Assembly: GCA_045540115.1 (NCBI GenBank)
Contig: JAZQGR010000066.1
Location: 12,354-76,353, forward strand
From: Eubacteriales bacterium
GTDB lineage: Bacteria; Bacillota; Clostridia; Oscillospirales; CAG-272
DNA: 64,000 nt
Reading direction: 5' to 3'
The notes under the pieces were generated by a model. The model made no database searches and had not been told where the DNA came from. It was given only the letters and a program-made list of their open reading frames with translations. Shown piece after piece: positions 3,033 to 63,620 of the stretch. Positions within the stretch are counted from its first letter, which is position 1; each line of letters begins with the position of its first letter. Made by a program: the position numbers and the translations under genes.

Positions 3033-3038
3033 ATAAAC

Positions 3039-24904: not shown

Positions 24905-24936
24905 GAACTAAAGCTATGACGCTTTCAGGAGAAACT

Positions 24937-26493: not shown

Positions 26494-26529
26494 AGGCTTT
26501 GAATCTATTCAAACGAAAGGAGATATACA

Positions 26530-32504: not shown

Positions 32505-32563
32505 TTGTTGACAATTCAACAGGTCTGTGTTATAATTTTCCCGGCTTGTTGAAAAATCAACAA
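32505..32563 (+). promoter_or_regulatory. Consensus sigma-A promoter overlapped by two TGTTGA-N4-TCAACA inverted repeats (putative MarR operators)
   Basis: TTGACA 32508-13, 17 nt, TATAAT 32531-36; palindromes at 32506-32521 and 32546-32563. Confidence 0.85.
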
Positions 32564-32578
32564 TTACAGGGAGCAGAA

Positions 32579-43619: not shown

Positions 43620-44387
43620 ATGGAAAATAAGGCAAAAACAAGCAAGGACTACTATTCGATAGACCTTATGCATATAGTCAGGACTCTTCTTCACCGTCTG
43701 TGGATAATCATTCTCGTGGCGGTGCTTGCTGCAACGACGGCGTTCGCGTATTCTGCATTCGTCGTTCCTCCGTCATACGGCGCGCAGGTTCTTCTTTATG
43801 TAAACAACAGCTCGATAAACTTCGGTAATACGAGCTTCGATATATCTGCCTCCGATATTCAGGCGTCGCTCAGTCTGGTAAACACTTATTCGGTGCTTCT
43901 TAAAAACCGTACGACGCTTGAACGAGTGATCGAAAACGCGGGCGTCGACTATACGGTCGCAGAGCTTGCAAATATGATCGATACGGGCTCGGTAAACGAT
44001 ACCGAGATCATGAAGGTCGTCGTTGTTTGCGGCGATCCCTACGAGGCGGCAAAGATAGCAAACAGCATCGCGGAGGTTCTCCCGACGAGAATTTCCGAGA
44101 TCATTGACGGTGCCTCGATGGAGGTTGTCGACAGTGCCGTTCCGGTAACTCAGCCGATCGGTCCCAACATTTCAAGAAATACCCTGCTCGGATTTATCAT
44201 CGGCGGACTTGTTGCCGCGATCGTTATCGCGATTCTTGCAATAATGGATGACACGATATATAATGAGGACTACGTTCTCGAAAATTATGACTATCCGATT
44301 CTGGCTAAGGTTCCGAACCTTCTTGAAACGCATAACGATAATTATAACGGATATTACAAAAAAGCGGCTGCGGAGCAGGAAGAGTAA
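43620..44387 (+). CDS. cpsC: Polysaccharide co-polymerase / chain-length determinant
   Basis: IDL..LWIII, PSY..LYV, proline-rich PVTQPIGPN before the second TM. Confidence 0.9.
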   Translation: MENKAKTSKDYYSIDLMHIVRTLLHRLWIIILVAVLAATTAFAYSAFVVPPSYGAQVLLYVNNSSINFGNTSFDISASDIQASLSLVNTYSVLLKNRTTLERVIENAGVDYTVAELANMIDTGSVNDTEIMKVVVVCGDPYEAAKIANSIAEVLPTRISEIIDGASMEVVDSAVPVTQPIGPNISRNTLLGFIIGGLVAAIVIAILAIMDDTIYNEDYVLENYDYPILAKVPNLLETHNDNYNGYYKKAAAEQEE

Positions 44388-44403
44388 AGGCGGGTGATAT
44401 AAA

Positions 44404-45168
44404 ATGGCATTGACTAAGAAAAAGAGACCCGCGGCGCTCACTCCCGCGGAAGTACAGAAGACGCTTCACAGAAATCTCGAATTTATAGCGTCTGAGCAGT
44501 ACCGTCTGCTCCGCGCAAACATAAAGTTCACCATCCCGGAGGACGTCAAGTGCCCGATAATCGGAGTTACCTCGTCTATTCGCGGAGAGGGCAAGAGCAC
44601 GACGGCGATAAACCTTTCTTACGTTCTTGCAAATAAGGGACATAAGGTACTCCTCGTCGACGGCGACCTTCGCATTCCCTCTATCGCAAAGAAAATGGGC
44701 GTAAAGAGCACACCCGGACTTACCGACCTTCTCATCGGCTCGAGCGCGGATATCGCCTCCTGGAAATCTGACGTACATAAGGATTGGTACGTTCTCCCCT
44801 CCGGCGAGATCCCCCCGAACCCCTCCGAGCTTCTCGGCTCGAAGAGAATGGAAAACGTGCTTAACGTTCTTAAGGAGCATTTCGATTACATAATCATCGA
44901 CCTCCCCCCCGTAAACGTCGTTTCCGACGCTATGGCGATCTCGAGCTGGGTGACGGGAATGATAATCGTTATCCGCGAGGGCTATACCTCGAAAAAGGAT
45001 CTTGACCGCTGTATGAGACAGATCAAGCTCTCAAACGTAAACATTCTCGGTTGCGTTATGAACGAGAGCGAGGAAGGAAGCGCCACACGCGGCAAGTATA
45101 AGAGAGGCAAAAATTCCTATTATTCCTACGAGTACAAAGCAGAAAATAAGGAAGCATTCGACCTGTGA
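44404..45168 (+). CDS. cpsD: BY-kinase (tyrosine-protein kinase)
   Basis: EQYRLLR, GEGKST, VDGDLR, IIIDLPP, C-terminal Tyr cluster. Confidence 0.95.
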   Translation: MALTKKKRPAALTPAEVQKTLHRNLEFIASEQYRLLRANIKFTIPEDVKCPIIGVTSSIRGEGKSTTAINLSYVLANKGHKVLLVDGDLRIPSIAKKMGVKSTPGLTDLLIGSSADIASWKSDVHKDWYVLPSGEIPPNPSELLGSKRMENVLNVLKEHFDYIIIDLPPVNVVSDAMAISSWVTGMIIVIREGYTSKKDLDRCMRQIKLSNVNILGCVMNESEEGSATRGKYKRGKNSYYSYEYKAENKEAFDL

Positions 45169-45878
45169 TAGACTTCCATTCACACATTCTTCCCGCCGTT
45201 GACGATGGAAGCTCAAGCGTCGGGGAGAGCGTGAAGCTTCTGCAAATGCTCAGGGATCAGGGAATAAAAACGGTAGTTGCCACTCCACATTTTGACGCTG
45301 CAAGAAATACTCCCGAGAAATTCATCAAGAAAAGAAACGAAAGCTACGAGCTGCTTTCCCCCGTGCTTGAGCCCGACCTGCCCGAGATAATACTCGGAGC
45401 GGAGGTCGCCTACTATCCGGGGATCGAACGCTTGAAGGGGCTTGAGCTTCTTACGGCAGGAGAAAGTAGCCTGCTTCTTACCGAAATGCCAATATCGGTC
45501 TGGTCCGATTATGCGGTAAGAGAGCTCGTTGAGCTCACGACGACCAAGGGCTTGACCGTCGTTCTCGCACATGCTGAGAGATATCTCGGACTTCAAAGCT
45601 TAAAGACGATTGGACTTCTCCATGACAGCGGCATACTGATGCAGTACAACGCAGACTTCTTCCTGCGCTTCGGACAGAAGCGAACGGCTATCAGAATGCT
45701 GGAGCTCGGAGAGATAAACCTGATCGGCTCCGACTGTCATAACCTTACTGCGCGCCCGCCTCGGATCGGCGAAGCGTATGAAAGAATTAAGAAAAAGCTC
45801 GGCGATGGCTTCTACTCGCGCTTTTGCGAGTACGGATATTCGCTAATCAATACAAAAACAAAAAATAAAACCTCTTGA
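45165..45878 (+). CDS. cpsB: PHP-family tyrosine phosphatase
   Basis: DFHSHILP..DDG, ATPH, AHAERY, GSDCH. Confidence 0.95.
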   Translation: MIDFHSHILPAVDDGSSSVGESVKLLQMLRDQGIKTVVATPHFDAARNTPEKFIKKRNESYELLSPVLEPDLPEIILGAEVAYYPGIERLKGLELLTAGESSLLLTEMPISVWSDYAVRELVELTTTKGLTVVLAHAERYLGLQSLKTIGLLHDSGILMQYNADFFLRFGQKRTAIRMLELGEINLIGSDCHNLTARPPRIGEAYERIKKKLGDGFYSRFCEYGYSLINTKTKNKTS

Positions 45879-45893
45879 AAGGACGATTTTATT

Positions 45894-46553
45894 ATGAAAA
45901 AGCTACTTGTTGTTCTCATCTCCGCTGTTATGATCGCAAGCCTCTCGCTTACCGGCTTCGCCGCATCCTTCGTTTCGAGCCCCTCGGGCAACGCGGCTCC
46001 GACCGTCGATTCCTTCGACTTTGAAAACGATAGCTGTACCGCTACCGTAGTAGTTACCGCTTATTCTCAGAGAAATGCTCTTTCCGCTGATGCAAAGGCG
46101 GCTATCGAGGCTGCATACAACTCTATCAAGAGCTCAAACGATGTTTCTTCCCTTAATGCAGACCTTGCTGCTCTCGCTAAGAGCAAAGACATCAAGGGAA
46201 CCAACCTCGCAGTAAGCGACCTCTTTGATGTAACCTATACCGGCTGTAATGCTCATACCGGCCACGGCAAGGTAACAGTTACCCTTAAGGCTGAGACTCT
46301 TAAGGATTTCGTAGGTCTTCTTCACTACGTAAACGGCGGCTGGGAGCTCGTTTCCGGCGCTACCGCTGAAGGCGGTAAGCTCACCTTTACGGTTGACTCG
46401 CTTTCTCCCTTCGCTATCGTAGTTGACGCTACCCCCGATTCTCCTCCTACCGACGATAACGGTACCGTTTACCTCCTCGTCGCTATCGCAGCACTTTCTC
46501 TCGCGGCAGCAGTTATCTGCTTCAAGAAGTCCCGTAAAGAGAGAGCAAACTAA
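45894..46553 (+). CDS. Secreted surface protein with sortase-like sorting signal
   Basis: Signal peptide; LSPFAIV; SPPTDD + TM + KKSRKER. Confidence 0.75.
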   Translation: MKKLLVVLISAVMIASLSLTGFAASFVSSPSGNAAPTVDSFDFENDSCTATVVVTAYSQRNALSADAKAAIEAAYNSIKSSNDVSSLNADLAALAKSKDIKGTNLAVSDLFDVTYTGCNAHTGHGKVTVTLKAETLKDFVGLLHYVNGGWELVSGATAEGGKLTFTVDSLSPFAIVVDATPDSPPTDDNGTVYLLVAIAALSLAAAVICFKKSRKERAN

Positions 46554-46585
46554 TCAGTAATTTGAATTAAGGAAAGAGGAATGAC

Positions 46586-47584
46586 ATGAGAGTATCGAGC
46601 ACGAAAAAAAGCAGGTATTATAGGTATGCCGCGATAATTCTGCTTGTTGTATTTCTTGTGTCATTTTCTCTTATCGCGGTAAATATTTATGAGAATAACC
46701 GCGGGAAATATCCGACGCAAACGACGGTAGAGCAGTTTATTGAGCATGATGGTGTGAAGTATGAGCTCAAGGAAGATCTTGAGACCTTTATCGTTATAGG
46801 TCTTGATAAGATGAGTGATTATGACGGCGTGTCGGATTCGTACAATAACGATAAACAGGCGGATTTTATTATGCTCTTTGTCCTTGATAACAAGGCAAAG
46901 ACGGTTACGCCGATCCATATAAACCGCGATACGATGGCTGAGATGAATATTCTCGGCCTTAACGGAAATCCCGTCGGAAGCGTGACAAAGCAGATCGCCC
47001 TTTCTTATAACTACGGAAACGGCGGAAAAATAAGTTGTCGCAATACGCTCGACGCGGTATCTGAGCTTCTTCTCGGAATGAAAATAAAGCACTACGCTTC
47101 CGTCACAATGGACGCCGTGCCGGTGTATAACGACCTTGTCGGCGGTGTGACGCTTGAGGTGCTTGACGACTTTACGGGTATCGACGAGACTCTTGTTAAG
47201 GGTGAAACGGTTGCTCTCTCGGGACAGCAGGCGCTGACCTACGTCCGTACAAGAGAAGGACTTGAGGATAATACGAACGCCGCACGAATGATACGCCAGA
47301 AGCAGTATCTTACGGCGCTTCGTGAAAAAACCGTGGAAAAGCTGAACAGCGGCACCAAGTTTGCCGTCGAGCTTACGACGGCGCTGTCCGATTATCTCAT
47401 TTCCGACCGTTCAGTCACTCAGATGCAGGAGCTTCTCGATAAATTCTCGTCTTATGAATTTTTGGAAACTCTCGAGCTCGAGGGCGAAAATAAGGTCGGC
47501 GAGAAATTCATGGAATTTTATCCGAGCGAGGATTCGATCACGGAGATCGTCGTGAAGGCGTTCTATCGGGAGTCGGATAAATAA
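46586..47584 (+). CDS. LCP-family phosphotransferase
   Basis: IGLD, QADFIML, INRDT, DLVGGV, ALTYVRTR, RMIRQKQ. Confidence 0.92.
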   Translation: MRVSSTKKSRYYRYAAIILLVVFLVSFSLIAVNIYENNRGKYPTQTTVEQFIEHDGVKYELKEDLETFIVIGLDKMSDYDGVSDSYNNDKQADFIMLFVLDNKAKTVTPIHINRDTMAEMNILGLNGNPVGSVTKQIALSYNYGNGGKISCRNTLDAVSELLLGMKIKHYASVTMDAVPVYNDLVGGVTLEVLDDFTGIDETLVKGETVALSGQQALTYVRTREGLEDNTNAARMIRQKQYLTALREKTVEKLNSGTKFAVELTTALSDYLISDRSVTQMQELLDKFSSYEFLETLELEGENKVGEKFMEFYPSEDSITEIVVKAFYRESDK

Positions 47585-47590
47585 TATCGT

Positions 47591-47787
47591 GGAGACATTC
47601 TCCGGAAAACGGTCATGATAAGTGGCCGTTTTGCGCCGTATAGAGATATGTTTTAATTTGCTAATGCAGTGATATATTTCCGCCGTTTCGGGCGGAAAAT
47701 GATATGATTTCTACCCTTTTGAGCCGCGCCTGCGGCGGTTTTCCGCCTACGCGCGTTGACTGTGCAGATCCTCCCACCAAGTGTGGG
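47591..47787 (+). ncRNA. Candidate cis-acting structured RNA (five hairpins) inside the capsule operon
   Basis: Five stems read by eye in a 230-nt gap; no family identified. Confidence 0.4.
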
Positions 47788-47815
47788 TTAAAATATAATT
47801 CGGAGAAGCTTTGTA

Positions 47816-49714: not shown

Positions 49715-49735
49715 ATTAATTCAGGATGAAAGCGA

Positions 49736-52097: not shown

Positions 52098-52104
52098 GGA
52101 TAGG

Positions 52105-53010: not shown

Positions 53011-53011
53011 G

Positions 53012-53968
53012 TTGAAAAGGGTCAGTGTAATTATACCCTGTTATAACTGCGAGACTTTGATTGAGGAAACATTGAGGAGTCTTGAAAAACAAACATACCG
53101 TGATTTTGAGGTCGTTTGTGTGAATGACGGATCAACAGATGAAACGCTGTCTGTTTTGAAAAAGTGGGAAAGCTGCTCGGACCTCGAATTGCGAATTATA
53201 GATAAAGAGAACGGCGGCGTTAGCAGCGCCAGAAACGCCGGTGTCAGAGCTGCAAGAGGAGAAAGCATTCTGTTTTTGGATTCTGATGATATGTATCACC
53301 CGGAATTTGTTGAGCGCCTTGTTTTTTCTGTTAAAAAAAGCGGAGCGGATGTTTCATATTGCCGGTTGAGCAGGAATCAAGATACCGTTTTTTCTAAGCC
53401 TCATATCCATTCTGAGGTTTTACAGAATCAGAGCGAAGCCATGTATAACTTGTTATACAGAATGCCTGAATTTGGGTTTTATTGTTACCTCTACAAAAAA
53501 GAGATAATCGCTCGCGAGAATCTTTTGTTCGATGAAAACACCCGTCATTTCGAGGATCGGGAATTTAACTGGAAATATTTGTGTCACTGTCAAACCGCAG
53601 TTTTAGTGGATGCGCCATTGTACTATTATCGTGTAAATGAAACCTCCGTGACACAATCTAAGAGAATTCAATGGAGAACAGACGGGATTGATGCGGTAAA
53701 AAGAATTGAAAACTACGTTGAACAAAAGGCAGGAACTTTTCTGCCTGAATTGAAATCCTACCTGTATCCTCGGGTAATGTGGACTATGGCGAAAAACTAT
53801 TCTCTCGGAGGAGAGCGAGGATTGCTTAGGCGTTTAGGTAAGGAATATGATGTAAAGGCGTGCATGAAACGAACTGTGAAGGACAAAAACAAGCTGGTTG
53901 CAATAGCTTCGTGGCTTTATCTGATTCATCCGATGCTGTTCTACCATATTGTGAGATCGAAACGATAG
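53012..53968 (+). CDS. Glycosyltransferase family 2
   Basis: SVIIPCYN, NDGSTD, GVSSARN, FLDSDD. Confidence 0.93.
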   Translation: MKRVSVIIPCYNCETLIEETLRSLEKQTYRDFEVVCVNDGSTDETLSVLKKWESCSDLELRIIDKENGGVSSARNAGVRAARGESILFLDSDDMYHPEFVERLVFSVKKSGADVSYCRLSRNQDTVFSKPHIHSEVLQNQSEAMYNLLYRMPEFGFYCYLYKKEIIARENLLFDENTRHFEDREFNWKYLCHCQTAVLVDAPLYYYRVNETSVTQSKRIQWRTDGIDAVKRIENYVEQKAGTFLPELKSYLYPRVMWTMAKNYSLGGERGLLRRLGKEYDVKACMKRTVKDKNKLVAIASWLYLIHPMLFYHIVRSKR

Positions 53969-53980
53969 AAAGGCTTGTAA

Positions 53981-54805
53981 ATGAACCCAATCAAATTATC
54001 ATATGCGCCGCTACTTAATGCAGGTGACCTTTTTAATAAAGATATTGTCGAAAAGCTTTCCGGGAAAAAAGTTGTAAACTCCAAAATGTATAACGCCGAC
54101 ATGATTGCAATAGGCGGAGCTTTGGTGGGTGCGCAATACTCGGGTGGAGCTATTAGAAAGGTCTGTCAAACTGCACTTGGTTTGGTATATGGTAGTAAGC
54201 CCCTTTATGTGTGGGGGAGCGGTTTTTTTAAAAATGATAATAACTGTGCTCTGTATCGGAAAAACTTGAAGGTTTGTGCATTAAGGGGGCAAAAAACACA
54301 GGAGAAATTATCATCTCTTACTGGTGTTTCTTATAACGTTCCTTTGGCGGATGCAGGCTTGTTGGCAGATATGTTTGTCGATGATAAGATTGAAAAACAA
54401 TATGAGATAGGATTGATTCCGCACATGTCACAAATTAATGACGTGTGTATGCAAAGAATACTTAAACAGGATAATGTCCATTTGATCGATATACGGCGTT
54501 CCGCAAAAGAGGTAATTGATGATATCGCTCGTTGTGAGAGCATTTTGTCGAGTAGTTTGCACGGATTGATTTTTGCGGACAGCCTCCATATTCCGTCGAT
54601 GCATATGATGGGGGATGGAGAACTACATGGCGGTAATTTTAAATTTGAAGATTATTACTCAAGCTTTGGGCTGGAAGATGCCCGCTACATAATGGATGAA
54701 TCGAATTTGCCGAGCAAAAAAATGATTGTTGATAGTTATCGTATATCATTTGGAGCGGTGGAAAAAAAGAAGCATCAATTGATCGAATGCTTCCCTAGGT
54801 TTTAA
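53981..54805 (+). CDS. Polysaccharide pyruvyl transferase
   Basis: NAGD, WGSG, LRG, IPH, SSSLHGLIFADS, FKFEDY. Confidence 0.85.
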   Translation: MNPIKLSYAPLLNAGDLFNKDIVEKLSGKKVVNSKMYNADMIAIGGALVGAQYSGGAIRKVCQTALGLVYGSKPLYVWGSGFFKNDNNCALYRKNLKVCALRGQKTQEKLSSLTGVSYNVPLADAGLLADMFVDDKIEKQYEIGLIPHMSQINDVCMQRILKQDNVHLIDIRRSAKEVIDDIARCESILSSSLHGLIFADSLHIPSMHMMGDGELHGGNFKFEDYYSSFGLEDARYIMDESNLPSKKMIVDSYRISFGAVEKKKHQLIECFPRF

Positions 54806-54816
54806 GAGGTGCTAAA

Positions 54817-55974
54817 ATGGAAATGTGTTTTGTTGCATCAAACTATCCTACACCTAATCGACAGGTTCACGTTTTTTTGGAAAACGTTGTTGTGAAGCTT
54901 GTTGATCGCGGTGTCACCTGTAATGTAATTGCGCCGCAGAGCACGTTTGCTTATTTTACGAAAAGAGATATTCGAAGAGAACTTGTTTCGGAGCGAATTA
55001 CACCGAACGGAAACAAATATATGGTGTATTCGCCGCTATACACGGTTTACCCTGCAAAAAAAATCGGAAGAATACATTTGGCTGATATTAGTAAAAGATC
55101 GTATTATAAAGCGATTAAAAAAACATATATGCAGCATAAAATGAACGCGGATGTGATCTATTCGCATTTTATTCAGGCAGGAATCCCGGCGGTTATGTTG
55201 GCAAAGGACCGTGGAGTTCCGTCGTTTATCGCAAATGGAGAAGCCGAAACAATAAGAGAAACCAGTGCCATCAGCCCGAAACTTTTGAGAAAAACGCTTG
55301 ATGATGTAACGGGAATTATATCGGTATCCACCAAAAATAAAGAGGAAATATTTGAGCTGTGCAACGGGGATGATCGAATTATGAGCAAGGTAACCGTAAT
55401 CCCCAATGCTACCGACAGTTCGCGCTTTTTTAAAAAGGACAAGCATGTTTGCAGAAAAGAACTGGGCTATCCGGAAGATGCCTTTATCGTCGCATTTACA
55501 GGAACCTTTATAGAGCGAAAAGGCATAGGAAAACTATCAAATGTGTTGAATCGCTTTGACGATGTTTACTCTGTGTTTATTGGAACCGGCGATTCCAAAC
55601 CTACATGCAAAAACATTCTCCACGTGGGACGAGTGCTGAACTCAAAGATGAGTATGTATTTGAATGCTGCAGACATATTTGTTTTACCGACTTTAGCAGA
55701 GGGATGCTGTAACGCAATTGTGGAAGCGGTGTCGTGTGGTGTGCCGGTGGTGTCGTCGGATAGATCGTTTAATTACGACGTTTTGGATAAAACAAATGCA
55801 ATATTGATCGATCCGTTAAGCGAGGAAGAGATCTACAACGCAATTAAAGCTTTGAAAGAAGATCCCGAAAGGCGCAATCGACTGGTCGAAGGATGTCTTG
55901 AAAAGGCCACGGAACTGTCTTTGGACCGCAGAGTAGATAAAATACTTGAGTTTATAACCGAAAGGTGCGAATAG
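54817..55974 (+). CDS. Glycosyltransferase family 4
   Basis: RKG, EGCCNAIVEA (EX7E), GVPVV. Confidence 0.92.
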   Translation: MEMCFVASNYPTPNRQVHVFLENVVVKLVDRGVTCNVIAPQSTFAYFTKRDIRRELVSERITPNGNKYMVYSPLYTVYPAKKIGRIHLADISKRSYYKAIKKTYMQHKMNADVIYSHFIQAGIPAVMLAKDRGVPSFIANGEAETIRETSAISPKLLRKTLDDVTGIISVSTKNKEEIFELCNGDDRIMSKVTVIPNATDSSRFFKKDKHVCRKELGYPEDAFIVAFTGTFIERKGIGKLSNVLNRFDDVYSVFIGTGDSKPTCKNILHVGRVLNSKMSMYLNAADIFVLPTLAEGCCNAIVEAVSCGVPVVSSDRSFNYDVLDKTNAILIDPLSEEEIYNAIKALKEDPERRNRLVEGCLEKATELSLDRRVDKILEFITERCE

Positions 55975-55993
55975 GATCATTTGGAGGAACGAT

Positions 55994-57160
55994 TTGAGAA
56001 ATATAAAAATTAGTCTAAAAACTGCAGACATCTTGTTTCTGCTTACCATGGTATTTCTTCTTGCATTTCCCGGGGCCTCCCAATTGAAAGCAGTTTTGAT
56101 CGTTGCCTTTTTTTTCTATATGATGGCTCAAAAAATTGCGAACTATAGAAAAACAAAGAACACGGTTTATATAGTTGGAGCGCTTCTGTTTTTGGGATAT
56201 GCATATATAAGCCGTTTTTGGGCATCACATCCAGAGGCGGTTTCTGAACAGATCGCAAATGTTTTGTGGGCAGTAATGATATGCACCGCGGTGTCTTGTT
56301 ATGTGTATTTTAGCGAGTTGAGCGTTAGAGATATATCAAATTTGCTTGTCCCTATAGCGATCTTGTTTTGTTTTAACGTGGTTTTCAACGCTTCGTTTGA
56401 CGAAGGGCGCATGTCAATCGGAATTAACGCGAATAGCTTTGGACGAATTGCATCCGGAATGGCATGTGTGTTTCTGTTTAGGTGCAAACAGGATAAGTGG
56501 AAGAACATATTCATGAATTGTCTGACGATTATGTTTTTGCTATTCACATTCTTGTCCGGTTCCCGAACATCGCTGCTACTTGTCTGTGTTTATGCAATAG
56601 CGTTTATGTTATTTGAACATCCAACGAAGAGCATAAAGAAAACAGTCGGGAAATTGTTGCTGCTTTTAGTGTTGTTGGTCGCGGGATATGTTTGCTTAAT
56701 CAACATTGACTTTCTTTACAATTCTATAGGTAATCGCGTTGAATCGTTGTTGCTTGAGATGTTTGGATTGTCTGAGGGCGATGGTTCAACCATTACCAGA
56801 ATCAACATGATGAACACCGCTCGAGAAATATTCGCCGAGCATCCATGGGTTGGAATTGGAATGAACAACTTCAAGTTCGCAACTCATTTTGGAACATATG
56901 CGCATAACACTTATCTCGAATTGGCGGCTTGTCTCGGTGTCGTGGGTCTAGTTCTCTATTATGGGCCGCTTGTTCTATATTTGAAACAAGCAATAAGCGG
57001 TTGGAGAAAAGATCGTGACGAAAGCATTGTGCCACTTGCAATTTTAATTGCGTTTTTGCTTGGAGATATAGGCGGCGTTTCGTATTTCAATCCCGTATCT
57101 CACATTTTTGTTGGATTAGCTGTCGGACTCATATCGCAAAATGAGCGAGAGGATAAGTAA
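55994..57160 (+). CDS. wzy: Polysaccharide polymerase (Wzy / O-antigen ligase-like)
   Basis: Many TMs, SGSRT, GIG, AHNTYLE motif. Confidence 0.85.
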   Translation: MRNIKISLKTADILFLLTMVFLLAFPGASQLKAVLIVAFFFYMMAQKIANYRKTKNTVYIVGALLFLGYAYISRFWASHPEAVSEQIANVLWAVMICTAVSCYVYFSELSVRDISNLLVPIAILFCFNVVFNASFDEGRMSIGINANSFGRIASGMACVFLFRCKQDKWKNIFMNCLTIMFLLFTFLSGSRTSLLLVCVYAIAFMLFEHPTKSIKKTVGKLLLLLVLLVAGYVCLINIDFLYNSIGNRVESLLLEMFGLSEGDGSTITRINMMNTAREIFAEHPWVGIGMNNFKFATHFGTYAHNTYLELAACLGVVGLVLYYGPLVLYLKQAISGWRKDRDESIVPLAILIAFLLGDIGGVSYFNPVSHIFVGLAVGLISQNEREDK

Positions 57161-57189
57161 AATTAAACCGCAAAACAGAGGAATACGCC

Positions 57190-58092
57190 GTGAATTTGTT
57201 GAAAATAATAACGTCTTCCAAGGATAGATTTGAATTTTTATCAAACAAGGGCCTTTTAAATTGGATGACGGATAGTGAGTATCTGAAAAAGAGATATTAT
57301 TACAAGGTCGGTAGCGCGCTGAATTTGGACAATCCACAAAAATACACTGAGAAACTTCAATGGTTAAAACTTCATGAACGCAACTCAAAATATACTGCTA
57401 TGGTGGATAAGTATGCAGTGCGGGATTACGTATCACAAAAAATCGGTAACGAGTATTTAATACCCTTGCTCGGCGGTCCTTGGAAGAAATTCAGCGAAAT
57501 TGATTTTTCTGAGTTGCCTGATCAGTTTGTGTTAAAATGCACACATGACAGTGGTGGTCTCGTTATTTGTAAAGACAAAAAAACGCTGGATAGAAGGTGC
57601 GCTAAGAAAAAAATAAACAGTTGTTTAAAACGCAATTTTTATCACCTGAATCGGGAGTGGGTGTATAAAGATGTTGTTCCGCAGATTATTGCTGAGCAAT
57701 ACATGGAGGATTCACAAACAAACGAACTACGAGACTATAAGTTTTTTTGTTTCAACGGAGAGCCTAAGGCATTGTTTGTGGCAACGGATCGTCAGACGCC
57801 GGGAGAAGAAGTAAAGTTTGACTTTTTTGATATGGATTATAACCATATTAATGTTAAAAACGGTCATGAAAATGCAAAAACATTTCCGGAAAAACCTTGG
57901 CAGTTTGATTTGATGAAGGATCTGGCAAAAAAGCTGTCGACAGATATTCCTCACGTTCGTGTTGATTTTTATGAAGTTGACGGGAAAGTGTATTTCGGAG
58001 AAATGACGTTCTTCCATTTTAGCGGAATGGTGCCGTTTGATCCAGAGGAATGGGACTATACTTTTGGAAGTTGGATAGAATTGAAAGGTTAG
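57190..58092 (+). CDS. TupA-like ATP-grasp protein
   Basis: EKLQWLK, VDKYAVR, KCTHDSG, DYKFFCFNG, HVRVDFY, GEMTF. Confidence 0.9.
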   Translation: MNLLKIITSSKDRFEFLSNKGLLNWMTDSEYLKKRYYYKVGSALNLDNPQKYTEKLQWLKLHERNSKYTAMVDKYAVRDYVSQKIGNEYLIPLLGGPWKKFSEIDFSELPDQFVLKCTHDSGGLVICKDKKTLDRRCAKKKINSCLKRNFYHLNREWVYKDVVPQIIAEQYMEDSQTNELRDYKFFCFNGEPKALFVATDRQTPGEEVKFDFFDMDYNHINVKNGHENAKTFPEKPWQFDLMKDLAKKLSTDIPHVRVDFYEVDGKVYFGEMTFFHFSGMVPFDPEEWDYTFGSWIELKG

Positions 58093-58104
58093 TCGGAGAA
58101 GTCT

Positions 58105-58413
58105 ATGCTGCCTGTTGAACAACGGATATCTTCAAAAAACAGCTTAAAGAATGGACGTCGTGCGAGTTGTCCAAGTACGGGAGAAGCCGTAATCCTTTTC
58201 TGCTGATTTCCGAGCGTGCTATATTACGTAAGCACGTGATTTTGTTGCGGGAAACAGAGTATCATGTTAACTCCGGTCATAAAATTCGCGGTTGTTAATA
58301 AGGATGTTTTGGAGTCGAATATTGCAGTGGCGGGTGTTCCGCCAAGAAAAATAAGCAATAACGGAAGAAAAACATGGAACAAAATAGAGAAACGTAATAA
58401 TCCTCTATTTTAG
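58105..58413 (+). pseudogene. Remnant of a serine-acetyltransferase-like (LbH) O-acetyltransferase
   Basis: Frameshifted N-terminus ISSK/KQLKEW..LLRETEYH joined to C-terminal AVVNKDV..IAVAGVPPRKI; central hexapeptide repeats absent. Confidence 0.7.
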
Positions 58414-58488
58414 AGTGATGGTATATTTTGATCTTGGAAATTGCAATTATGCTATTGGAATTTGTCTAATGCGTATTAGGAGCGAGAA

Positions 58489-59955
58489 ATGTCTAACAAC
58501 ATAAATCAGAAAATTGGAAGCGCTACCAAGTGGTCTTCCATAACAGAAATTGTCGCAAAACTTATAACTCCTGCGACAAATATGATTCTCGCGCGCCTGC
58601 TGGTTCCAGAGTCGTTTGGCATTGTTGCAACAATCACAATGGTTATAAGCTTCGCGGAGGTTTTTACCGATGCGGGGTTTCAGAAATATATTGTTCAACA
58701 TGAGTTTCCTGATGACGAAACCTTGGACAAAAGCACCAACGTGGCATTTTGGACAAATCTTGGGGTTTCGTTTATAATATGTGGGCTTATATTTTTATTT
58801 AGACATTCAATCGCAGAGCTGGTGGGTAATTCGGGACTTGGCAATTCCATTAGCATTGCATCTGTTCTTATTATTATTGCCGCTTTTTCAAGCATACAGA
58901 TCGCTAGATATCGAAGGGCGCTTGATTTTAAAACATTATTTTTTGTTCGGATAATTACCTCGCTCATGCCGCTTGTTGTGACGGTTCCATTGGCTGTAGT
59001 TTTGCGAAACTATTGGGCGTTATTGATTGGAACGTTCGCAAGCCAGCTTTGTAACGCAATAATTCTTACGGTTCGTTCTAAGTGGAAACCAAAATTTTAC
59101 CACAATATTGAGTTGTTTAAGGAAATGTTCTCATTTACTGCTTGGACATTACTGGAGAGCATATCGATTTGGCTTACGCTAAATATCGGGACGTTTATTG
59201 TGGGGAATCGCTTAAGCGGGCATTATCTTGGAATCTATAAGACCTCTATGTCTACGGTCAATTCATATATGTCTGTTATTACTGCGGCGCTGACACCGGT
59301 CTTGTTTTCAGCATTGTCGCGGTATCAAAACGACGAGGATAATTTCAGAAAAACATACTATAAGTTTCAACGCCTGACTGCGATCTTCGTCATCCCAATG
59401 GGAATTGGGGCGTTCGTCTATCAGGACTTGGTTACGCGAATTCTCTTGGGAAGTCAATGGACGGAAGCTAGTGGATTTATAGGCGTTTGGGGGCTTACAA
59501 GCGCTTTTTCAATAGTTTTTGCGAATTTTTCCAGCGAAGTGTATCGAAGTAAAGGAAACCCCAAAGTCTCTTTAATAATGCAGCTGGTACACTTAGCTTT
59601 TCTAGTTCCGGTGTTAATAATAAGCGCGACATATGGATTTAAAGTACTGTACATGGCGCGTTCTCTTGTGCGCTTGCAGATGATAGCGTGCGCATTGCTG
59701 ATAATGCATGTCATGTATGGTTTTAAAGTGAATCACGTTGTGCGGAACGTTCTTCCCATGATTGCTTCCGGGACGGTGATGGGGGTAGCAGGCTACTTGC
59801 TGAAAATGGCAAGCACCAATGTGGTCTGGCAAGTTATATCAGTGATTCTGTGCATCATGGTTTATTTTGTTGTTCTTTTCGGCGTGTCTTCAAATACAAG
59901 AAGAGATTTTCTTGAATCGAATTTTGGAAGGAGGCTACGGGAAAAGATAAAATAA
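58489..59955 (+). CDS. wzx: Flippase (Wzx/WzxC-like)
   Basis: ILARLLVPESFG, about 12 TMs. Confidence 0.92.
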   Translation: MSNNINQKIGSATKWSSITEIVAKLITPATNMILARLLVPESFGIVATITMVISFAEVFTDAGFQKYIVQHEFPDDETLDKSTNVAFWTNLGVSFIICGLIFLFRHSIAELVGNSGLGNSISIASVLIIIAAFSSIQIARYRRALDFKTLFFVRIITSLMPLVVTVPLAVVLRNYWALLIGTFASQLCNAIILTVRSKWKPKFYHNIELFKEMFSFTAWTLLESISIWLTLNIGTFIVGNRLSGHYLGIYKTSMSTVNSYMSVITAALTPVLFSALSRYQNDEDNFRKTYYKFQRLTAIFVIPMGIGAFVYQDLVTRILLGSQWTEASGFIGVWGLTSAFSIVFANFSSEVYRSKGNPKVSLIMQLVHLAFLVPVLIISATYGFKVLYMARSLVRLQMIACALLIMHVMYGFKVNHVVRNVLPMIASGTVMGVAGYLLKMASTNVVWQVISVILCIMVYFVVLFGVSSNTRRDFLESNFGRRLREKIK

Positions 59956-60047
59956 TGGTGAGCTTTTGAAACATTTTCAAGAAACACTGAACATGCACTG
60001 TTGAGCTTTCTCACGCGATCATTTATTTCAATACTACGAGGAATTAT

Positions 60048-61220
60048 ATGACAGCTTACGAAGCGTTTGAACAAACCTATAAAAAGCCGCCGCAGCATGT
60101 GGCGTTCACGCCGTACCGGGTATGCCCGGTAGGTGCGCACACGGATCATCAGCTGGGGAAGATAACAGGCTTTGCGATTGACAAGGGCATCCACATGGTG
60201 TACGGTCCTAAGCAAAACGGCGTGATCGAAATTCGCTCGTTGCAATTTGAAAAACGTGCGCAGTGGCACGTTTTGTCGACTCCCGAAAAGCCGGAGGGCG
60301 ACTGGGCGGATCATCTTCGCGGTGCGACGATCGCGCTTGCTTCGAGATATCCGCTGAGAACGGGCTTGTGCGCCGTGATTGGCGGGGAGTTGCCAATAGG
60401 CGGACTGTCCTCGTCGGCAGCGGTGATTATTACGTTCCTGTCAGCTCTTTGCAAGCTGAACGGTATAACGGTGTCTCCGCAGGAGATGATCGTGATCTCT
60501 CAGGAGGCGGAGAACAAATACGTTGGCGTCGCTTGCGGGAAGCTCGATCAATCCTGCGAGGTTTACTGCAAAAAAAATCATTTGCTATGTCTTGACACCA
60601 AGGACGGCACCTACGAGCTGATCCCTCAGCCATCCGACATGAAGCCATACAAATTCGCGATATTTTTCAGTGGGATAGAGCGCAGTCTTGCGGGTTCGGC
60701 GTACAATATGCGGGTTGACGAGTGCAAGAGTGCGGCGTATGCATTGAAGGCTTACGCGGGAATGCCGTACGGGAAGCTTGAGGAAACTGTTCTCAGCGAC
60801 GTTCCGAGAGCGGTTTATGAAGAATACAAGCATCTGCTTCCCGAAAATTGGAGAAAGCGCGCCGAGCATTGGTATACTGAGACGGATCGCGTCGAAAAGG
60901 CTGCGGAAGCATGGCGGCGCGGTGATATAGAAGAATATGGGCGCCTTTGCTTCGAGAGCGGACACAGCTCCATTAACAGCTGGGATACAGGCTCGCCTGA
61001 GCTTGTCAAGCTATATGAGATCATGAGAAGTACCGAAGGAATATACGGAGGCAGATTCTCCGGAGCGGGCTTCAAGGGATGCTGCCTCGCGATAATCGAT
61101 CCCGAATATGAGAAAAGCATTATTGAAAACGTGACACGCGAGTATTTGAAAGCCTTTCCGCATTTGGAGGGCAAATATTCCGCCCACGTTTGCGAGAGTG
61201 CTGACGGAGTCAAATTATGA
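60048..61220 (+). CDS. GHMP sugar kinase, galacturonokinase-like
   Basis: PYRVCPVGAHTDHQ, PIGGLSSSAA, CGKLDQ, YNMRVDEC, GGRFSGAGFKGCC. Confidence 0.8.
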   Translation: MTAYEAFEQTYKKPPQHVAFTPYRVCPVGAHTDHQLGKITGFAIDKGIHMVYGPKQNGVIEIRSLQFEKRAQWHVLSTPEKPEGDWADHLRGATIALASRYPLRTGLCAVIGGELPIGGLSSSAAVIITFLSALCKLNGITVSPQEMIVISQEAENKYVGVACGKLDQSCEVYCKKNHLLCLDTKDGTYELIPQPSDMKPYKFAIFFSGIERSLAGSAYNMRVDECKSAAYALKAYAGMPYGKLEETVLSDVPRAVYEEYKHLLPENWRKRAEHWYTETDRVEKAAEAWRRGDIEEYGRLCFESGHSSINSWDTGSPELVKLYEIMRSTEGIYGGRFSGAGFKGCCLAIIDPEYEKSIIENVTREYLKAFPHLEGKYSAHVCESADGVKL

Positions 61221-61954
61221 AATGCTTGATTTTGGCGGCAGGCTACGCTACTCGCCTTTATCCTTTAACGGAAAATTTTCCGAAGCCGCTTTTGACGGTC
61301 GGCGACAAAACGATTCTCGATTGGCTTGTTGACGATATAGATTCAGCAAATGTCATCGACGAATACGTTGTTATATCGAATCACAAGTATGCTCACTGTT
61401 TTGAAGAGTGGGCGAAAACAAAAAAGCAGAAGATCACAGTCGTTGACGACGGCACGAGTACAAACGAAACGCGACTTGGAGCTGTAAAGGACATTCAGTA
61501 TGCTATCGAAAGCCTGAATATCGATGACGATATGCTCGTTATAGCAGGCGACAACGTGCTTGATTTCAGTCTTACGAGGTTTATTGCATACGCGATGAAG
61601 AAAAAGACTTCCTGCGTAATGCGTTATTACGAGCCTGAGTTTAAAAAGCTTCTCAAGACCGGCGTTGTGACGGTCGATGAAAACGACGTTGTCACGAAAA
61701 TGACCGAGAAATCTCCCGAGCCCGAAACACATTGGTGTTGCCCGCCGTTCTATTACTATACGAGCTCCGATTCCAAGCTGATAGCGAAAGCGATCGGAGA
61801 GGGATGCGGCACCGACGCCCCCGGAAGCTTTATAGCGTGGCTCTGCAAGGCGAGCAGGGTGTGTGCTATGGAAATGCCGGGAAAGAGATACGACATCGGC
61901 GACGTTGAGAGCTACGAGAAGGTAAGAGCCGAATATATCGGAATAGTGAAATGA
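61217..61954 (+). CDS. Sugar-1-phosphate nucleotidyltransferase
   Basis: LAAGYATRLYPLT..PKPLL, IAGDN, YDIG; ATGA overlap with the kinase stop. Confidence 0.92.
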   Translation: MKCLILAAGYATRLYPLTENFPKPLLTVGDKTILDWLVDDIDSANVIDEYVVISNHKYAHCFEEWAKTKKQKITVVDDGTSTNETRLGAVKDIQYAIESLNIDDDMLVIAGDNVLDFSLTRFIAYAMKKKTSCVMRYYEPEFKKLLKTGVVTVDENDVVTKMTEKSPEPETHWCCPPFYYYTSSDSKLIAKAIGEGCGTDAPGSFIAWLCKASRVCAMEMPGKRYDIGDVESYEKVRAEYIGIVK

Positions 61955-62016
61955 CTATTCGCCGCCTCATGTGTTCTTCGTTTGAAGAAGCGTAGCGGCT
62001 TGAAAGCGGTGATGGA

Positions 62017-63099
62017 TTGAAAAAAAGCAGACGATTATATATTTGGGGCTACTTTGTGAAGAACCTCGGAGACGACTTGATGCTCAAGGCGGCGATCGAC
62101 CGATATAAAGACCGATACCGAAAGATATATATAATAGGAAACAAGAGTCTCAAGAAATACTATGCTGATTTTGGCGTAAAGGTCGTTGCGCAGGATTCTT
62201 TCTTTTACAGAGTGCTGAATAAAGTATTCAAGACGTTGAAAATGCCGGAGTTGTTTTACTTGCTTTGTGACGGGCGGTCGGACTTTTTGATGCTCGGCGG
62301 CTCGCTTTTTATTGAGCTTGACAACGAGAGGCTTACCGCTATGAAGCTTAAAAACCTCGAATGCGCCGTTAAGCGTTCGCGCAATGCGTTTGTTGTCGGA
62401 AGCAATTTCGGACCGTTTCATTCCGAAGCGTTTTTTGAGGGGTTCGTGCGGATATTCGGCAATTGCAAAGACGTTTGCTTCAGAGACGTGCAATCCTGCG
62501 ATATGTTTGCCGGCAAGTGCAACGTTCGCTATGCCCCCGATACGGTTCTTGGAATGGAGCTCGGGGAAGGTCGTGCGATTTGTGACGGCGATCCCGTTGT
62601 GATCTCTGTGATTAATCTTGAAAACCGTAATAATCTGTCAGAACAGACCGAATGCTATGAGAAGCTAATGGCAAGCGTTGCGGCTTATCACGCGCAAAAG
62701 GGAGACCGTGTGATTCTTGCAAGCTTTTGCGATAATGAGGGAGACTTGGCTGCCTGTGAGCGCATAAGAAATTACTGTGACGAAACGCTCGAGATCGTGT
62801 CGTACGAAAGCCTGAGTGTGCTTGACGTTTTGTCGGGCGCCAATAAGATATACGGCGCAAGATTTCACGCCGTAATGCTTGCGATGCGTTACGGGATCCC
62901 CTGTATGCCGATCGTTTACAGTGCGAAGACCGTGAACGCGCTTCTTTCCTACGGAGTCTCTTTTGACAGCGTGGATATTACAAACCTTTCGGGGTGCTCG
63001 GCAGAGGATCTGACGGAACGTGCGGTAATCGGAAGCATTCCGTCCGACTTGACCGAAAGGGCAAAAAAACAGTTTGAGGTGATGGATCTATGCTGTTGA
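62017..63099 (+). CDS. Polysaccharide pyruvyl transferase
   Basis: NLGDD, GGSLF, NFGPF, FRD, APD, RFHA. Confidence 0.88.
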   Translation: MKKSRRLYIWGYFVKNLGDDLMLKAAIDRYKDRYRKIYIIGNKSLKKYYADFGVKVVAQDSFFYRVLNKVFKTLKMPELFYLLCDGRSDFLMLGGSLFIELDNERLTAMKLKNLECAVKRSRNAFVVGSNFGPFHSEAFFEGFVRIFGNCKDVCFRDVQSCDMFAGKCNVRYAPDTVLGMELGEGRAICDGDPVVISVINLENRNNLSEQTECYEKLMASVAAYHAQKGDRVILASFCDNEGDLAACERIRNYCDETLEIVSYESLSVLDVLSGANKIYGARFHAVMLAMRYGIPCMPIVYSAKTVNALLSYGVSFDSVDITNLSGCSAEDLTERAVIGSIPSDLTERAKKQFEVMDLCC

Positions 63100-63620
63100 G
63101 ATATTTCCGAGAAAAACGATTAAGACAAGAACGGGCACGGTTGACCTGTGGCACGAACGTGTTTATAGACCGATCCGTTCAGATATACGGTCCCGAAAAC
63201 GTGAAGATAGGCAACGATGTTCACATTCAGTTCGGCTGCAGCTTTTTCGTGAGTGCGAAGGACGGCTTGACGATTGGCGACGGATGTGTTTTTGCCCACG
63301 ACGTTCAGATACTGACGCGAAATCACAATTATGACTCTGATGATCTCGAATATATTCCTTACGATAAGCGTCAGATAGATCGACCGGTCGAAATCGGCGA
63401 ATACAGTTGGATAGGTGCGCGCGTAACGATACTTCCGGGTGTGAAGATCGGGCGCGGCGTAGTTGTCGGTGCAGGATCGGTTGTGACAAAGAACGTGCCT
63501 GACTATGCCGTGGTTGGCGGAAACCCCGCAAAAATACTAAAATACAGAAATAAGGAAAAATTTGAGGAGCTTTTGAAAGACGGTAAGGGGTACATAAAGT
63601 GCACTAAAAATTACCGCTGA
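63090..63620 (+). CDS. LbH acyltransferase (O-acetyltransferase)
   Basis: Hexapeptide repeats, WIGARVTILPGV, VGAGSVV, GGNPAK. Confidence 0.92.
   Translation: MLLRYFREKRLRQERARLTCGTNVFIDRSVQIYGPENVKIGNDVHIQFGCSFFVSAKDGLTIGDGCVFAHDVQILTRNHNYDSDDLEYIPYDKRQIDRPVEIGEYSWIGARVTILPGVKIGRGVVVGAGSVVTKNVPDYAVVGGNPAKILKYRNKEKFEELLKDGKGYIKCTKNYR

Follow-up and report, generated by a model that had tools for sequence, protein, structure and literature searches.

Organization of the locus

The window, by which we mean the whole stretch of 64,000 nucleotides analysed here, contains a polysaccharide locus whose genes, from 43620 to 63620, all lie on the + strand. The presence of an initiating transferase, glycosyltransferases, Wzy, Wzx and Wzz/CpsBCD-type regulators identifies it as a Wzx/Wzy-dependent capsule or EPS locus. 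A kinase and a nucleotidyltransferase gene sit 3' of Wzy, a TupA-like ligase and Wzx, with the second pyruvyl transferase and the hexapeptide O-acetyltransferase on their own 3' side. The first five genes below form a regulatory/attachment block (43620..47584; Pfam PF02706, PF13614, PF19567, PF03816).

43620-44387, + strand: Wzz-like protein (Pfam)
44404-45168, + strand: CpsD-like P-loop kinase (Pfam)
45165-45878, + strand: CpsB phosphatase (Pfam)
45894-46553, + strand: ORF without a family match in our searches
46586-47584, + strand: LytR-CpsA-Psr protein (Pfam)
47816-49714, + strand: CapD/PseB-like UDP-HexNAc 4,6-dehydratase (PF02719; NCBIfam PseB-like, 178 bits, below cut-off)
49736-50368, + strand: initiating sugar-phosphate transferase (PF02397)
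50365-51240, + strand: SDR epimerase/reductase (PF01370)
51237-52097 and 53012-53968, + strand: GT2 glycosyltransferases (PF00535)
52033-53010, + strand: TupA-like ATP-grasp ligase 1, predicted amidoligase on the uronate C6 carboxylate of the polymer (PF14305, 6e-46)
53981-54805, + strand: first pyruvyl transferase (PF04230)
54817-55974, + strand: GT4 glycosyltransferase (PF00534)
55994-57160, + strand: Wzy polymerase (PF04932)
57190-58092, + strand: TupA-like ATP-grasp ligase 2 (PF14305, 4.2e-64)
58489-59955, + strand: Wzx flippase (PF13440, 7.8e-86)
60048-61220, + strand: GalK-like GHMP sugar-1-kinase, 390 aa, predicted D-galacturonate 1-kinase (Pfam, tree, signature positions)
61217-61954, + strand: sugar-1-phosphate nucleotidyltransferase, 245 aa, RmlA/GalU fold, predicted UTP:GalA-1-P uridylyltransferase (PF00483, ATGA overlap)
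62017-63099, + strand: second pyruvyl transferase (PF04230, 2.1e-25)
63090-63620, + strand: hexapeptide O-acetyltransferase, last gene of the locus (PF00132, 4.7e-17)

The sequence GAGGA lies a few bases 5' of the kinase ATG. The kinase and transferase genes overlap in an ATGA, with the transferase ATG at 61217 and the kinase TGA at 61218-61220, an arrangement of translational coupling. A promoter/terminator scan of 57-64 kb returned 8 terminator-like sites against 7.2 expected and is thus uninformative on operon boundaries.

Family placement of the kinase

Matches to PF10509 (5.1e-12), PF00288 (7e-12) and PF08544 (7.3e-8) place the kinase in the GalK-like branch of the GHMP superfamily. Its AF2 model (pLDDT 95.5) has the GalK fold, with a TM score of 0.87 to human GALK1 in Foldseek; no galacturonokinase (GalAK) structure was among the Foldseek matches listed, and sugar specificity is not informed by the fold. 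The protein scores below every GalK equivalog cut-off: TIGR00131 (196.8 against 226.65), NF003006 (208.4 against 443), NF003705 (206.9 against 385) and NF003472 (190.5 against 499). Protein atlas matches to the kinase were look-alike clusters from Bacteroidota and Verrucomicrobiota, named galactokinase or GHMP kinase.

The kinase ORF contains FTPYRVCPVGAHTDHQLG and IYGGRFSGAGFKGCCLAII; the retrieved Camellia sinensis galacturonokinase, P0229, reads PYRICPLGAHIDHQ and GARFSGAGFRGCC. In GalK, the Glu of the G-E-H-x-D-Y signature contacts the C6 hydroxyl of the sugar. Of the 92 clade members, 84 have Ala in the column aligned with A30 of the window kinase, whereas 15 of the 16 GalK-type rows have Glu there; the departure from the GalK motif is therefore a family signature and not chance. 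At the position of H34 all 16 GalK rows have Tyr, and Q35 is also discriminating. Discriminating columns were defined as those in which the GalAK clade and GalK are each conserved to at least 80% but on different residues. At 13 of 13 such columns the window kinase has the GalAK-clade residue, as does the Camellia enzyme. The catalytic-type residues R24, D33, D167 and Y219 are common with GalK.

In a careful IQ-TREE analysis of 51 rows, 11 GalK-type and 40 Ala-type rows were split at 100/100, and every one of 200 bootstrap trees showed this split; both the window kinase and P0229 are among the Ala-type rows. The same division was found in a quick tree of 109 rows (SH-aLRT 99). By the AU test, a placement of the window's 14-row subclade as sister to all other Ala-type sequences, next to GalK, was not rejected (p 0.42). 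This result bears on rooting within the Ala-type clade and so limits closeness to the plant enzyme, not clade membership; the split from GalK stands, and a function assigned by analogy with the plant enzyme has to reach across the deepest split within the clade. An earlier note on this DNA had described the Glu-to-Ala replacement, motifs of plant type and an ATGA overlap with a sugar-1-phosphate nucleotidyltransferase inside the Wzx/Wzy locus. Comparison with P0229 bears out the first two, ORFs and Pfam the third, and the phylogeny that the note proposed as a check groups the kinase with plant GalAK, apart from GalK.

The kinase family is widespread, counting 8000 or more clusters at 90% identity, and the name 'galactokinase/galacturonokinase' is already in use at JGI for some of its members, so that the novelty claimed for a bacterial route is narrower than the note had it. 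To our knowledge, the plant enzyme is the only characterised member of the GalAK clade. Annotations as 'galactokinase' on the window kinase's clade are probably wrong. A full-text search, covering titles and the beginnings of abstracts, returned no description of a bacterial GalAK-type route from galacturonate (GalA) to UDP-GalA; by a GalAK-type kinase, this route is experimentally documented so far in plants only.

The coupled nucleotidyltransferase

The transferase carries a full-length PF00483 domain (9.9e-26 over residues 3-239), and its N-terminal loop of the G-x-G-T-R type reads AAGYATRLYPLT. UGPase and RmlA are its top-scoring relatives in the PDB (1e-9). Among the 25 NCBIfam equivalog models shown (RmlA, GalU, AglF, GlmU, MurU, HddC and others), none was matched over its cut-off, the top scores being those of TIGR03992 (79.3 against 292.1) and AglF (77.3 against 400). 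A Pfam scan at E <= 0.01 gave PF00483, PF12804 and PF01128 only, with no UDPGP-family (USP/SLOPPY-type) domain. According to one study, a canonical RmlA had no activity on GalA-1-P (PMC9056299), and acceptance of a uronate-1-phosphate is thus not a given for the RmlA fold. We infer a specificity for GalA-1-P and, most likely, UTP.

Gene neighbourhood and genome content

Of the 80 best related loci, 75 have the transferase directly 3' of the kinase (74/76 where there is at least 800 bp of room). A UDP-glucuronate-4-epimerase-type gene is found within 3.5 kb of the kinase in 46 and a UDP-Glc 6-dehydrogenase-type (Ugd) gene within 5 kb in 22; the recurrent neighbours are Ugd and a 4-epimerase of carboxylate-binding type, not GalE or UXS. 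The best solved relatives of the neighbouring epimerase are 5u4q (3e-109), presumably a Klebsiella Uge-type epimerase, and the 6zl6 series (3e-36), which we take to be the B. cereus UDP-GlcA 4-epimerase; for both names the support is the conserved Arg185 numbering only, and those of 5U4Q and 6ZLA were not confirmed in the papers found. The neighbouring epimerase retains a Ser/Thr triplet and an Arg aligned with Arg185. According to PMC12338863, which cites 6Z73 for BcUGAepi, Arg185 holds the UDP-GalA carboxylate. One genus (G010, G040, G066) has the kinase without any orthologue of the transferase. A fused NT-GalK-like ORF of 799 aa in relative L017 is a different protein from the window pair.

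The window genome is a draft of 125 contigs, 97% complete. A profile search of this draft found no nucleotide-sugar dehydrogenase over cut-off (best 23.7 bits), and tblastn gave no Ugd hit, with a top epimerase hit of only 25% identity. The genome encodes the uronate isomerase UxaC, and free uronate is evidently usable by the cell, since this enzyme is present. A GH28 polygalacturonase was searched for and not found, so the cell would rely on free uronate.

Within the order, the kinase occurs in 9 of 201 genomes. The epimerase is present in 5/9 kinase-positive against 4/192 kinase-negative genomes and a TupA-like ligase in 6/9 against 8/192, counts that overstate the association because related genomes are not independent; the Ugd type is missing from 6/9 kinase-positive genomes.

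All the computational checks proposed in the earlier note that we ran came out in its favour. The window genome is without Ugd and UDP-GlcA 4-epimerase by profile search and tblastn, TupA-like ligases co-occur with the kinase, and the pair in relatives adjoins epimerase-type and Ugd genes. Its proposal that the organism builds its polymer directly from pectin-derived GalA holds up with a qualification: salvage of GalA is the supported part, as a predicted route, while an origin in pectin is not, GH28 not having been found.

A putative galacturonate salvage pathway

Established here are the structure of the genes, their family placement, the signature residues, the conserved neighbourhood and the content of the genome; which sugar and which nucleotide are used, and that the product enters the polymer, we infer from them. 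We consider it reasonably likely that the pair carries out salvage of GalA via GalA-1-P to UDP-GalA and that this is here the sole source of uronate for the polymer. The kinase would phosphorylate free D-galacturonate at C1 with ATP, yielding alpha-GalA-1-P, and the coupled transferase would join GalA-1-P to a nucleoside triphosphate, most likely UTP, giving UDP-GalA. Glycosyltransferases of the Wzx/Wzy locus would then put GalA in the repeat unit, where the two TupA-like ATP-grasp ligases would probably amidate its carboxylate. Since neither a UDP-glucose dehydrogenase nor a UDP-glucuronate 4-epimerase was seen in the genome, salvage would be the only route to a uronate donor.

Alternatively, the substrate of the kinase may be D-glucuronate (GlcA), by itself or alongside GalA, with the pair supplying UDP-GlcA; this would still be uronate salvage, with other or relaxed C4 specificity. 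We take the Tyr aligned with Y219 to set C4 specificity for the galacto configuration (after Yang et al. 2009, in which a Tyr-to-Phe mutant of plant GalAK reportedly acquired GlcA activity), and Phe stands at this position in 70 of 79 close relatives and 34 of 92 clade rows. Furthermore, the 4-epimerase linked in 46/80 relative loci would interconvert either product, so that context cannot tell GalA from GlcA. The function of the TupA-like fold comes from C. jejuni Cj1438C, and the characterised domain acts on GlcA (PMC11800379). The window kinase, by contrast, keeps a Tyr that aligns with that of plant GalAK and is found in 16/16 GalK rows. In addition, the sole characterised member of the clade carries GalA in its name, and we regard a kinase for GlcA, or for both uronates, as unlikely.

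A neutral galacto sugar (D-galactose, L-arabinose or D-fucose) could also be the substrate, with the pair making UDP-Gal or UDP-L-Ara for the polysaccharide independently of the Leloir pathway. This would suit the GalK fold of the model and the Pfam galactose-binding signature, and loss of the Glu could likewise be tolerated with a sugar that lacks the C6 hydroxyl. Pairwise BLAST does not separate GalAK from GalK for the window kinase, which scores 208 bits (34% identity) to plant GalAK and 211 bits (33%) to a GalK-type protein. However, the tree separates the kinase from GalK, the discriminating positions all side with GalAK, and the recurrent neighbours are of uronate type. Moreover, in eight genomes of the class sample a canonical GalK over cut-off is accompanied by a further match of 179-205 bits, the tier in which the window kinase scores. 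Judged from its sequence, the window kinase is not the cell's galactokinase, since it falls below the GalK cut-offs and the genome has a separate GalK-like gene and GalT; it has no linked galT or galE of its own. A neutral substrate thus seems quite improbable.

It is very doubtful that the substrate is some other acidic or modified sugar, such as a 2-acetamido uronate or a uronate that was amidated and then set free in turnover, or that the kinase recycles the cell's own polymer as opposed to serving dietary uptake. In favour of such a role, the locus makes a modified HexNAc via its CapD/PseB-like dehydratase, relative L022 has the kinase beside UDP-ManNAc dehydrogenase and 2-epimerase genes, and the genus lacking the transferase shows that the kinase can function in a different arrangement. 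Against it, the dehydrogenase beside the kinase belongs to the UDP-glucose 6-dehydrogenase type in 22 loci and to the ManNAc type in one, and we know of no precedent.

Comparison with known systems

The predicted GalA salvage follows the same logic as the plant pathway, which runs from GalA via GalA-1-P to UDP-GalA according to a review (PMC8636097). Plant GalAK (EC 2.7.1.44; Arabidopsis At3g10700) belongs to the same clade as the window kinase. Both enzymes have Ala where GalK has Glu, both have the conserved Tyr and a His-Gln pair following the Asp, and the GAGF(R/K)G motif of each includes a basic residue. The two are only 34% identical, however, and may be separated by the clade's deepest split. 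The plant partner is a UDP-sugar pyrophosphorylase (SLOPPY/USP, UDPGP family), whereas that of the window is a 245-aa PF00483 protein, encoded by an overlapping gene in an operon within a capsule locus. In the window genome, unlike the plant system, salvage seems to stand in for de novo synthesis and not to supplement it. Canonical GalK (TIGR00131, Leloir pathway) shares with the window kinase its fold, three Pfam domains and catalytic-type Arg, Asp and Tyr, but the latter differs in Glu to Ala, Tyr-Asn to His-Gln, a score below the equivalog cut-off, a separate clade and no galT/galE linkage.

Bacteroides Fkp, an L-fucokinase/GDP-fucose pyrophosphorylase, turns a scavenged free sugar into a glycosyl donor. 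In zebrafish, a glucuronokinase/putative pyrophosphorylase fusion acts in UDP-GlcA salvage (PMC3938481). Like the window pair, both combine a GHMP anomeric kinase with a nucleotidyltransferase, taking a free sugar directly to the donor; they are single fused polypeptides of other GHMP subfamilies, whereas the window has two separate, translationally coupled genes. The bacterial de novo route (Ugd and a UDP-glucuronate 4-epimerase of the Gla/Cap1J/BcUGAepi type) has the same predicted end product as the window pair, and its genes share a cassette with kinase and transferase in many relatives, but neither was seen in the window genome.

Implications

If the predicted pathway is correct, some bacteria would have a direct route from GalA to UDP-GalA in which a GalAK-type kinase is teamed with a small transferase of the RmlA fold, unrelated to the plant pyrophosphorylase. 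Plant GalA kinase is described in a UDP-GlcA 4-epimerase study as unstable, with activity too weak for UDP-GalA production (PMC7984243); a kinase/transferase pair from bacteria, if stable, would have practical value as a one-pot catalyst for this nucleotide sugar. The pathway would, furthermore, link surface-glycan synthesis in rumen and gut Clostridia and Bacteroidales, which are abundant and for the most part uncultured, to products of pectin breakdown.

More tentatively, it is possible that this organism and other gut Clostridia with the kinase and without Ugd obtain surface-polymer uronate only from free galacturonate freed from dietary pectin by neighbouring microbes, which would make capsule composition diet-dependent. 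The kinase-transferase(-epimerase-Ugd) cassette might be passed by horizontal transfer between herbivore-gut Clostridia, Bacteroidales and other phyla, and a natural Tyr/Phe switch at position 219 might set whether a given kinase takes GalA only or both GalA and GlcA.

Layout of the polysaccharide locus

The kinase and transferase lie in a polysaccharide locus, all on one strand, at ~43.6–63.6 kb of the window, with genes in this order:

5′ part: Wzz-like, CpsD-like, CpsB, unknown ORF, LytR-CpsA-Psr gene
Next: CapD/PseB-like dehydratase, initiating sugar-phosphate transferase, SDR
Next: GT2, TupA-like ATP-grasp, GT2, pyruvyl transferase, GT4
Next: Wzy, second TupA-like ATP-grasp, Wzx
3′ part: 60048–61220 (+), kinase, 390 aa; 61217–61954 (+), transferase, 245 aa; then second pyruvyl transferase, hexapeptide acetyltransferase

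A GAGGA precedes the kinase start. The earlier note had described two unusual kinase motifs and an ATGA overlap with the transferase inside a Wzx/Wzy locus: both motifs are present in the kinase ORF, and the ORF coordinates and gene content bear out the overlap and its setting. G+C is ~0.40 over 52–60 kb versus ~0.50 over 60–64 kb, with the jump exactly at the kinase start, suggesting that the kinase, the transferase, and the pyruvyl transferase and acetyltransferase genes after them form a distinct module in a mosaic locus, possibly different in origin from the GT/Wzy/Wzx core.

The ORF between CpsB and the LytR gene (45894–46553) had no Pfam family at E ≤ 1e-6; nor did ORFs 35622–37834, 386–1270, 5530–6414, and 19231–20253 (all given as 219–381 aa). 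Elsewhere, the window holds four tandem paralogues of 503–532 aa (21765–28128), each weakly matching a GH123-like catalytic domain (E 1e-13 to 1e-16). It also holds two unusual fusions: one joins a MarR-type HTH to a GT8 glycosyltransferase domain (32306–33979, 557 aa), the other a PfkB sugar kinase to an AraC-type HTH (31096–32334, minus strand, 412 aa).

Phylogenetic placement of the kinase

The kinase is galactokinase (GalK)-like, yet it is not a galactokinase. It carries all three GalK/GHMP Pfam domains, and its AlphaFold model (pLDDT 95.5) has a TM-score of 0.87 to human GALK1, but it falls under every NCBIfam galactokinase cut-off (e.g., TIGR00131, 196.8 vs 226.65). Among 120 scored genomes of the window's class, TIGR00131 matches form a top tier of canonical GalK (283–412 bits; above cut-off in 47 genomes), a middle tier that includes the window kinase (179–205 bits), and a lowest tier (107–154 bits); canonical GalK and a middle-tier match occur together in eight genomes. 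The window's own genome encodes a second GalK-like protein (PGRSEISGNHTDH; 428 aa, contig C106, locus L007:1393–2679) with Asn at the signature Glu position and 117.7 bits on TIGR00131, far under the cut-off, in a low-scoring tier that is widespread in Clostridia. Since GalT is encoded elsewhere in the genome, this protein is presumably the working galactokinase, and galactose catabolism would therefore be independent of the window kinase.

An exhaustive profile-free search returned 9846 representative kinase homologues (E ≤ 0.001). Most full-length proteins of the best 150 contain P-Y-R-x-C-P-L-G-A-H-x-D-H-Q; one of these 150, P0229, carries the name galacturonokinase (Camellia sinensis), and the streptophyte alga Spirogloea is the source of another match, P0236. 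In a quick tree of 109 rows, 92 Ala-type rows (mostly Ala where GalK has its signature Glu), including the window kinase and both plant rows, split off (branch 0.92, SH-aLRT 99) from 14 canonical GalK, two further GalK-type representatives, and the 428-aa protein. A careful 51-row tree, the kind of phylogeny proposed earlier as a check on the plant-type assignment, recovered the same split (100/100, in 100% of 200 bootstrap trees), grouping the window kinase with plant galacturonokinase (GalAK) and apart from GalK, within a 14-row subclade (99/98). Both the window kinase and the plant enzyme have the GalAK-clade residue at 13/13 columns separating the two groups. Position 30 is Ala in 84/92 clade rows versus Glu in 15/16 GalK rows, position 34 is His in 86/92 versus Tyr in 16/16, and position 343 is Arg/Lys in 49/92 versus Gly in 16/16. 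GalAK and GalK affinity are told apart by the tree and these signature columns only, not by pairwise BLAST, which gave 208 bits (34%) to plant GalAK and 211 bits (33%) to a GalK-type protein. An AU test (p 0.42) did not reject placing the window's subclade as sister to the rest of the Ala-type sequences; thus the plant enzyme and the window kinase may be as distant as the clade permits.

Residue 219 (window ~60702–60704) is a natural Tyr/Phe polymorphism. It is Tyr in the window kinase, the plant enzyme, and 16/16 GalK rows, and Phe in 34/92 clade rows; 79 close relatives have Phe (70), Tyr (7), Val (1), or Leu (1), with no clean link between residue type and epimerase presence seen among them. 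A Tyr-to-Phe mutant of plant GalAK, made by Yang et al. in 2009, reportedly took glucuronate (GlcA) as well; if so, the clade may contain strict and relaxed enzymes.

Gene neighborhoods in relatives

We counted neighboring genes in the best 80 of 516 confirmed relatives from species-representative genomes, nearly all gut or rumen MAGs labeled Clostridia, Acutalibacteraceae, Oscillospiraceae, or Christensenellaceae, with kinases 66–81% identical to the window's.

Genes near the kinase in the best 80 of 516 confirmed relatives
Transferase immediately downstream: 75/80 (74/76 loci with ≥800 bp available)
SDR of UDP-GlcA 4-epimerase type (cassette epimerase) within 3.5 kb: 46/80
UDP-glucose 6-dehydrogenase (Ugd)-type gene within 5 kb: 22/80
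UDP-ManNAc dehydrogenase type: 1/80
TupA-like ligase within 9 kb: 12/80
Homologue of the window's Wzx, Wzy, TupA, initiating transferase, or CapD within 9 kb: 19/80
Epimerase and Ugd both absent: 20/54 (loci with at least 4 kb each side)

In the exceptions, L098 and L101, an epimerase or Ugd gene directly follows the kinase instead. Among solved structures, the cassette epimerase matches 5u4q best (3e-109), followed by the 6zl6/6zla series (3e-36); we take the latter to be the Bacillus cereus UDP-GlcA 4-epimerase. The cassette epimerase retains a Ser/Thr triplet at 126–128 and an Arg aligned to chain residue 185; Arg185 of the B. cereus enzyme holds the UDP-GalA carboxylate, according to PMC12338863. 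The neighboring dehydrogenase is over the NDP-sugar dehydrogenase subfamily cut-off, with the E. coli-type UDP-glucose 6-dehydrogenase as its best model. The recurrent cassette of Ugd, UDP-GlcA 4-epimerase, kinase, and transferase would be sensible if all four fed a single UDP-uronate pool, and nothing other than this shared pool points to UTP as the nucleotide used by the transferase.

In locus L018, the Ugd beside the kinase (7531–9024, 497 aa) is extended at its N terminus by a helix-turn-helix domain (PF01381, residues 16–62), and several Ugd orthologues lie in open frames of 500–515 aa (G191, G086, G182); the extension reflects either the fusion of a regulator to the enzyme or a start-site artefact common to these genes.

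Kinases 67–75% identical to the window's also occur on MAG contigs, some of 115–317 kb, labeled Bacteroidales, Prevotellaceae, Muribaculaceae, or Abditibacteriota (L085, L109, L110, L116, L118, L119, L124, L129, L130, L133, L134, L113). This suggests that the cassette moved across phyla in herbivore guts, although binning errors are a possible alternative.

The nucleotidyltransferase

The transferase is a full-length PF00483 protein that matches no curated equivalog above its cut-off and whose nearest solved relatives, UGPase and RmlA, are distant (~1e-9). Close-homologue clusters number at least 8000 for the transferase and likewise for the kinase; many transferase homologues are on contigs of the same size as kinase matches, which fits linkage of both genes. 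From this linkage alone, the transferase is predicted to act on GalA-1-P. A standard RmlA had no activity toward GalA-1-P (PMC9056299), so a dedicated enzyme is plausible, yet acceptance of uronate-1-phosphates is not automatic. Genus g20 (G010, G040, G066; loci L019, L017, L021) has the kinase, adjoining TupA-like and/or epimerase genes, with the transferase orthologue absent genome-wide; pairing is therefore common, not obligatory, and this genus must either activate the sugar-1-phosphate with a different enzyme or put it to some other use.

Locus L017 also contains a fused nucleotidyltransferase and GalK-like GHMP kinase ORF (1952–4351, 799 aa), and long frames of this type (541–890 aa) occur in G240, G273, G245, G277, and G204. 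They match the gal_kin model at 107–125 bits only and are putative Fkp-like bifunctional salvage enzymes.

Genome content and gene co-occurrence

The window's genome (2.65 Mb, 125 contigs, 97% complete) has no nucleotide-sugar dehydrogenase above cut-off (best 23.7 bits), no tblastn match to Ugd at 1e-5, and a best tblastn match to the cassette epimerase of just 25% identity; this draft assembly thus shows the joint absence of ugd and epimerase that was suggested earlier as a check on salvage. It encodes a uronate isomerase, UxaC (542.6 bits), so the cell evidently imports and uses free hexuronates; GH28 was not found in this genome. Counts across the order are given without a statistical test because the genomes are not phylogenetically independent (G010, G040, and G066 belong to one genus).

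Genes in 201 genomes of the window's order (9 kinase-positive, 192 kinase-negative)
Kinase: 9/201
Ugd type: 21/201; 3/9 kinase-positive, 18/192 kinase-negative
Cassette epimerase: 9/201; 5/9 kinase-positive, 4/192 kinase-negative
TupA-like ligase: 14/201; 6/9 kinase-positive, 8/192 kinase-negative

Five of the six kinase-positive genomes without the Ugd type (G000, the window's own; G095, G010, G040, G066, G144) have TupA. The same queries found neither kinase, Ugd, nor epimerase in TupA-positive G004, G098, and G103. To our knowledge, GlcA amide formation is the single characterized activity of the TupA-like fold. In the Campylobacter jejuni capsule, the amide is formed on the GlcA C6 carboxylate, as PMC11800379 describes, which fits a uronate-containing polymer and agrees with the earlier note's reading of these ligases.

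A putative galacturonate salvage pathway

Gene arrangement, phylogeny, signature residues, linkage, and gene content of the genome are observed; the chemistry of the following pathway is inferred at every step. The cell would take up free galacturonate (GalA), the kinase would phosphorylate its C1, and the transferase would produce UDP-GalA. Glycosyltransferases of the locus would then place GalA in a repeat unit, TupA-like ligases would amidate its carboxylate, and Wzx and Wzy would flip and polymerize the unit, respectively. Salvage of a uronate, whichever the epimer, is quite probable, while salvage specific to GalA is somewhat favored.

The earlier note knew of no description of this route in bacteria. 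Full-text searches of openly available papers, judged by titles and abstract openings, likewise yielded no bacterial GalA kinase or salvage route; the papers returned concerned plants, metabolomics, zebrafish glucuronokinase, enzymology with plant enzymes, or unrelated topics. However, JGI already labels two of 120 listed homologues "galactokinase/galacturonokinase" (NCBI labels others "GHMP kinase"), so for this family annotation runs ahead of the literature.

The kinase–transferase pair is a real, well-conserved module, found in capsule loci. It would be a bacterial version of plant GalA salvage whose activating enzyme differs from, and is not homologous to, the plant one. In the window's organism, the module probably substitutes for the de novo uronate pathway.
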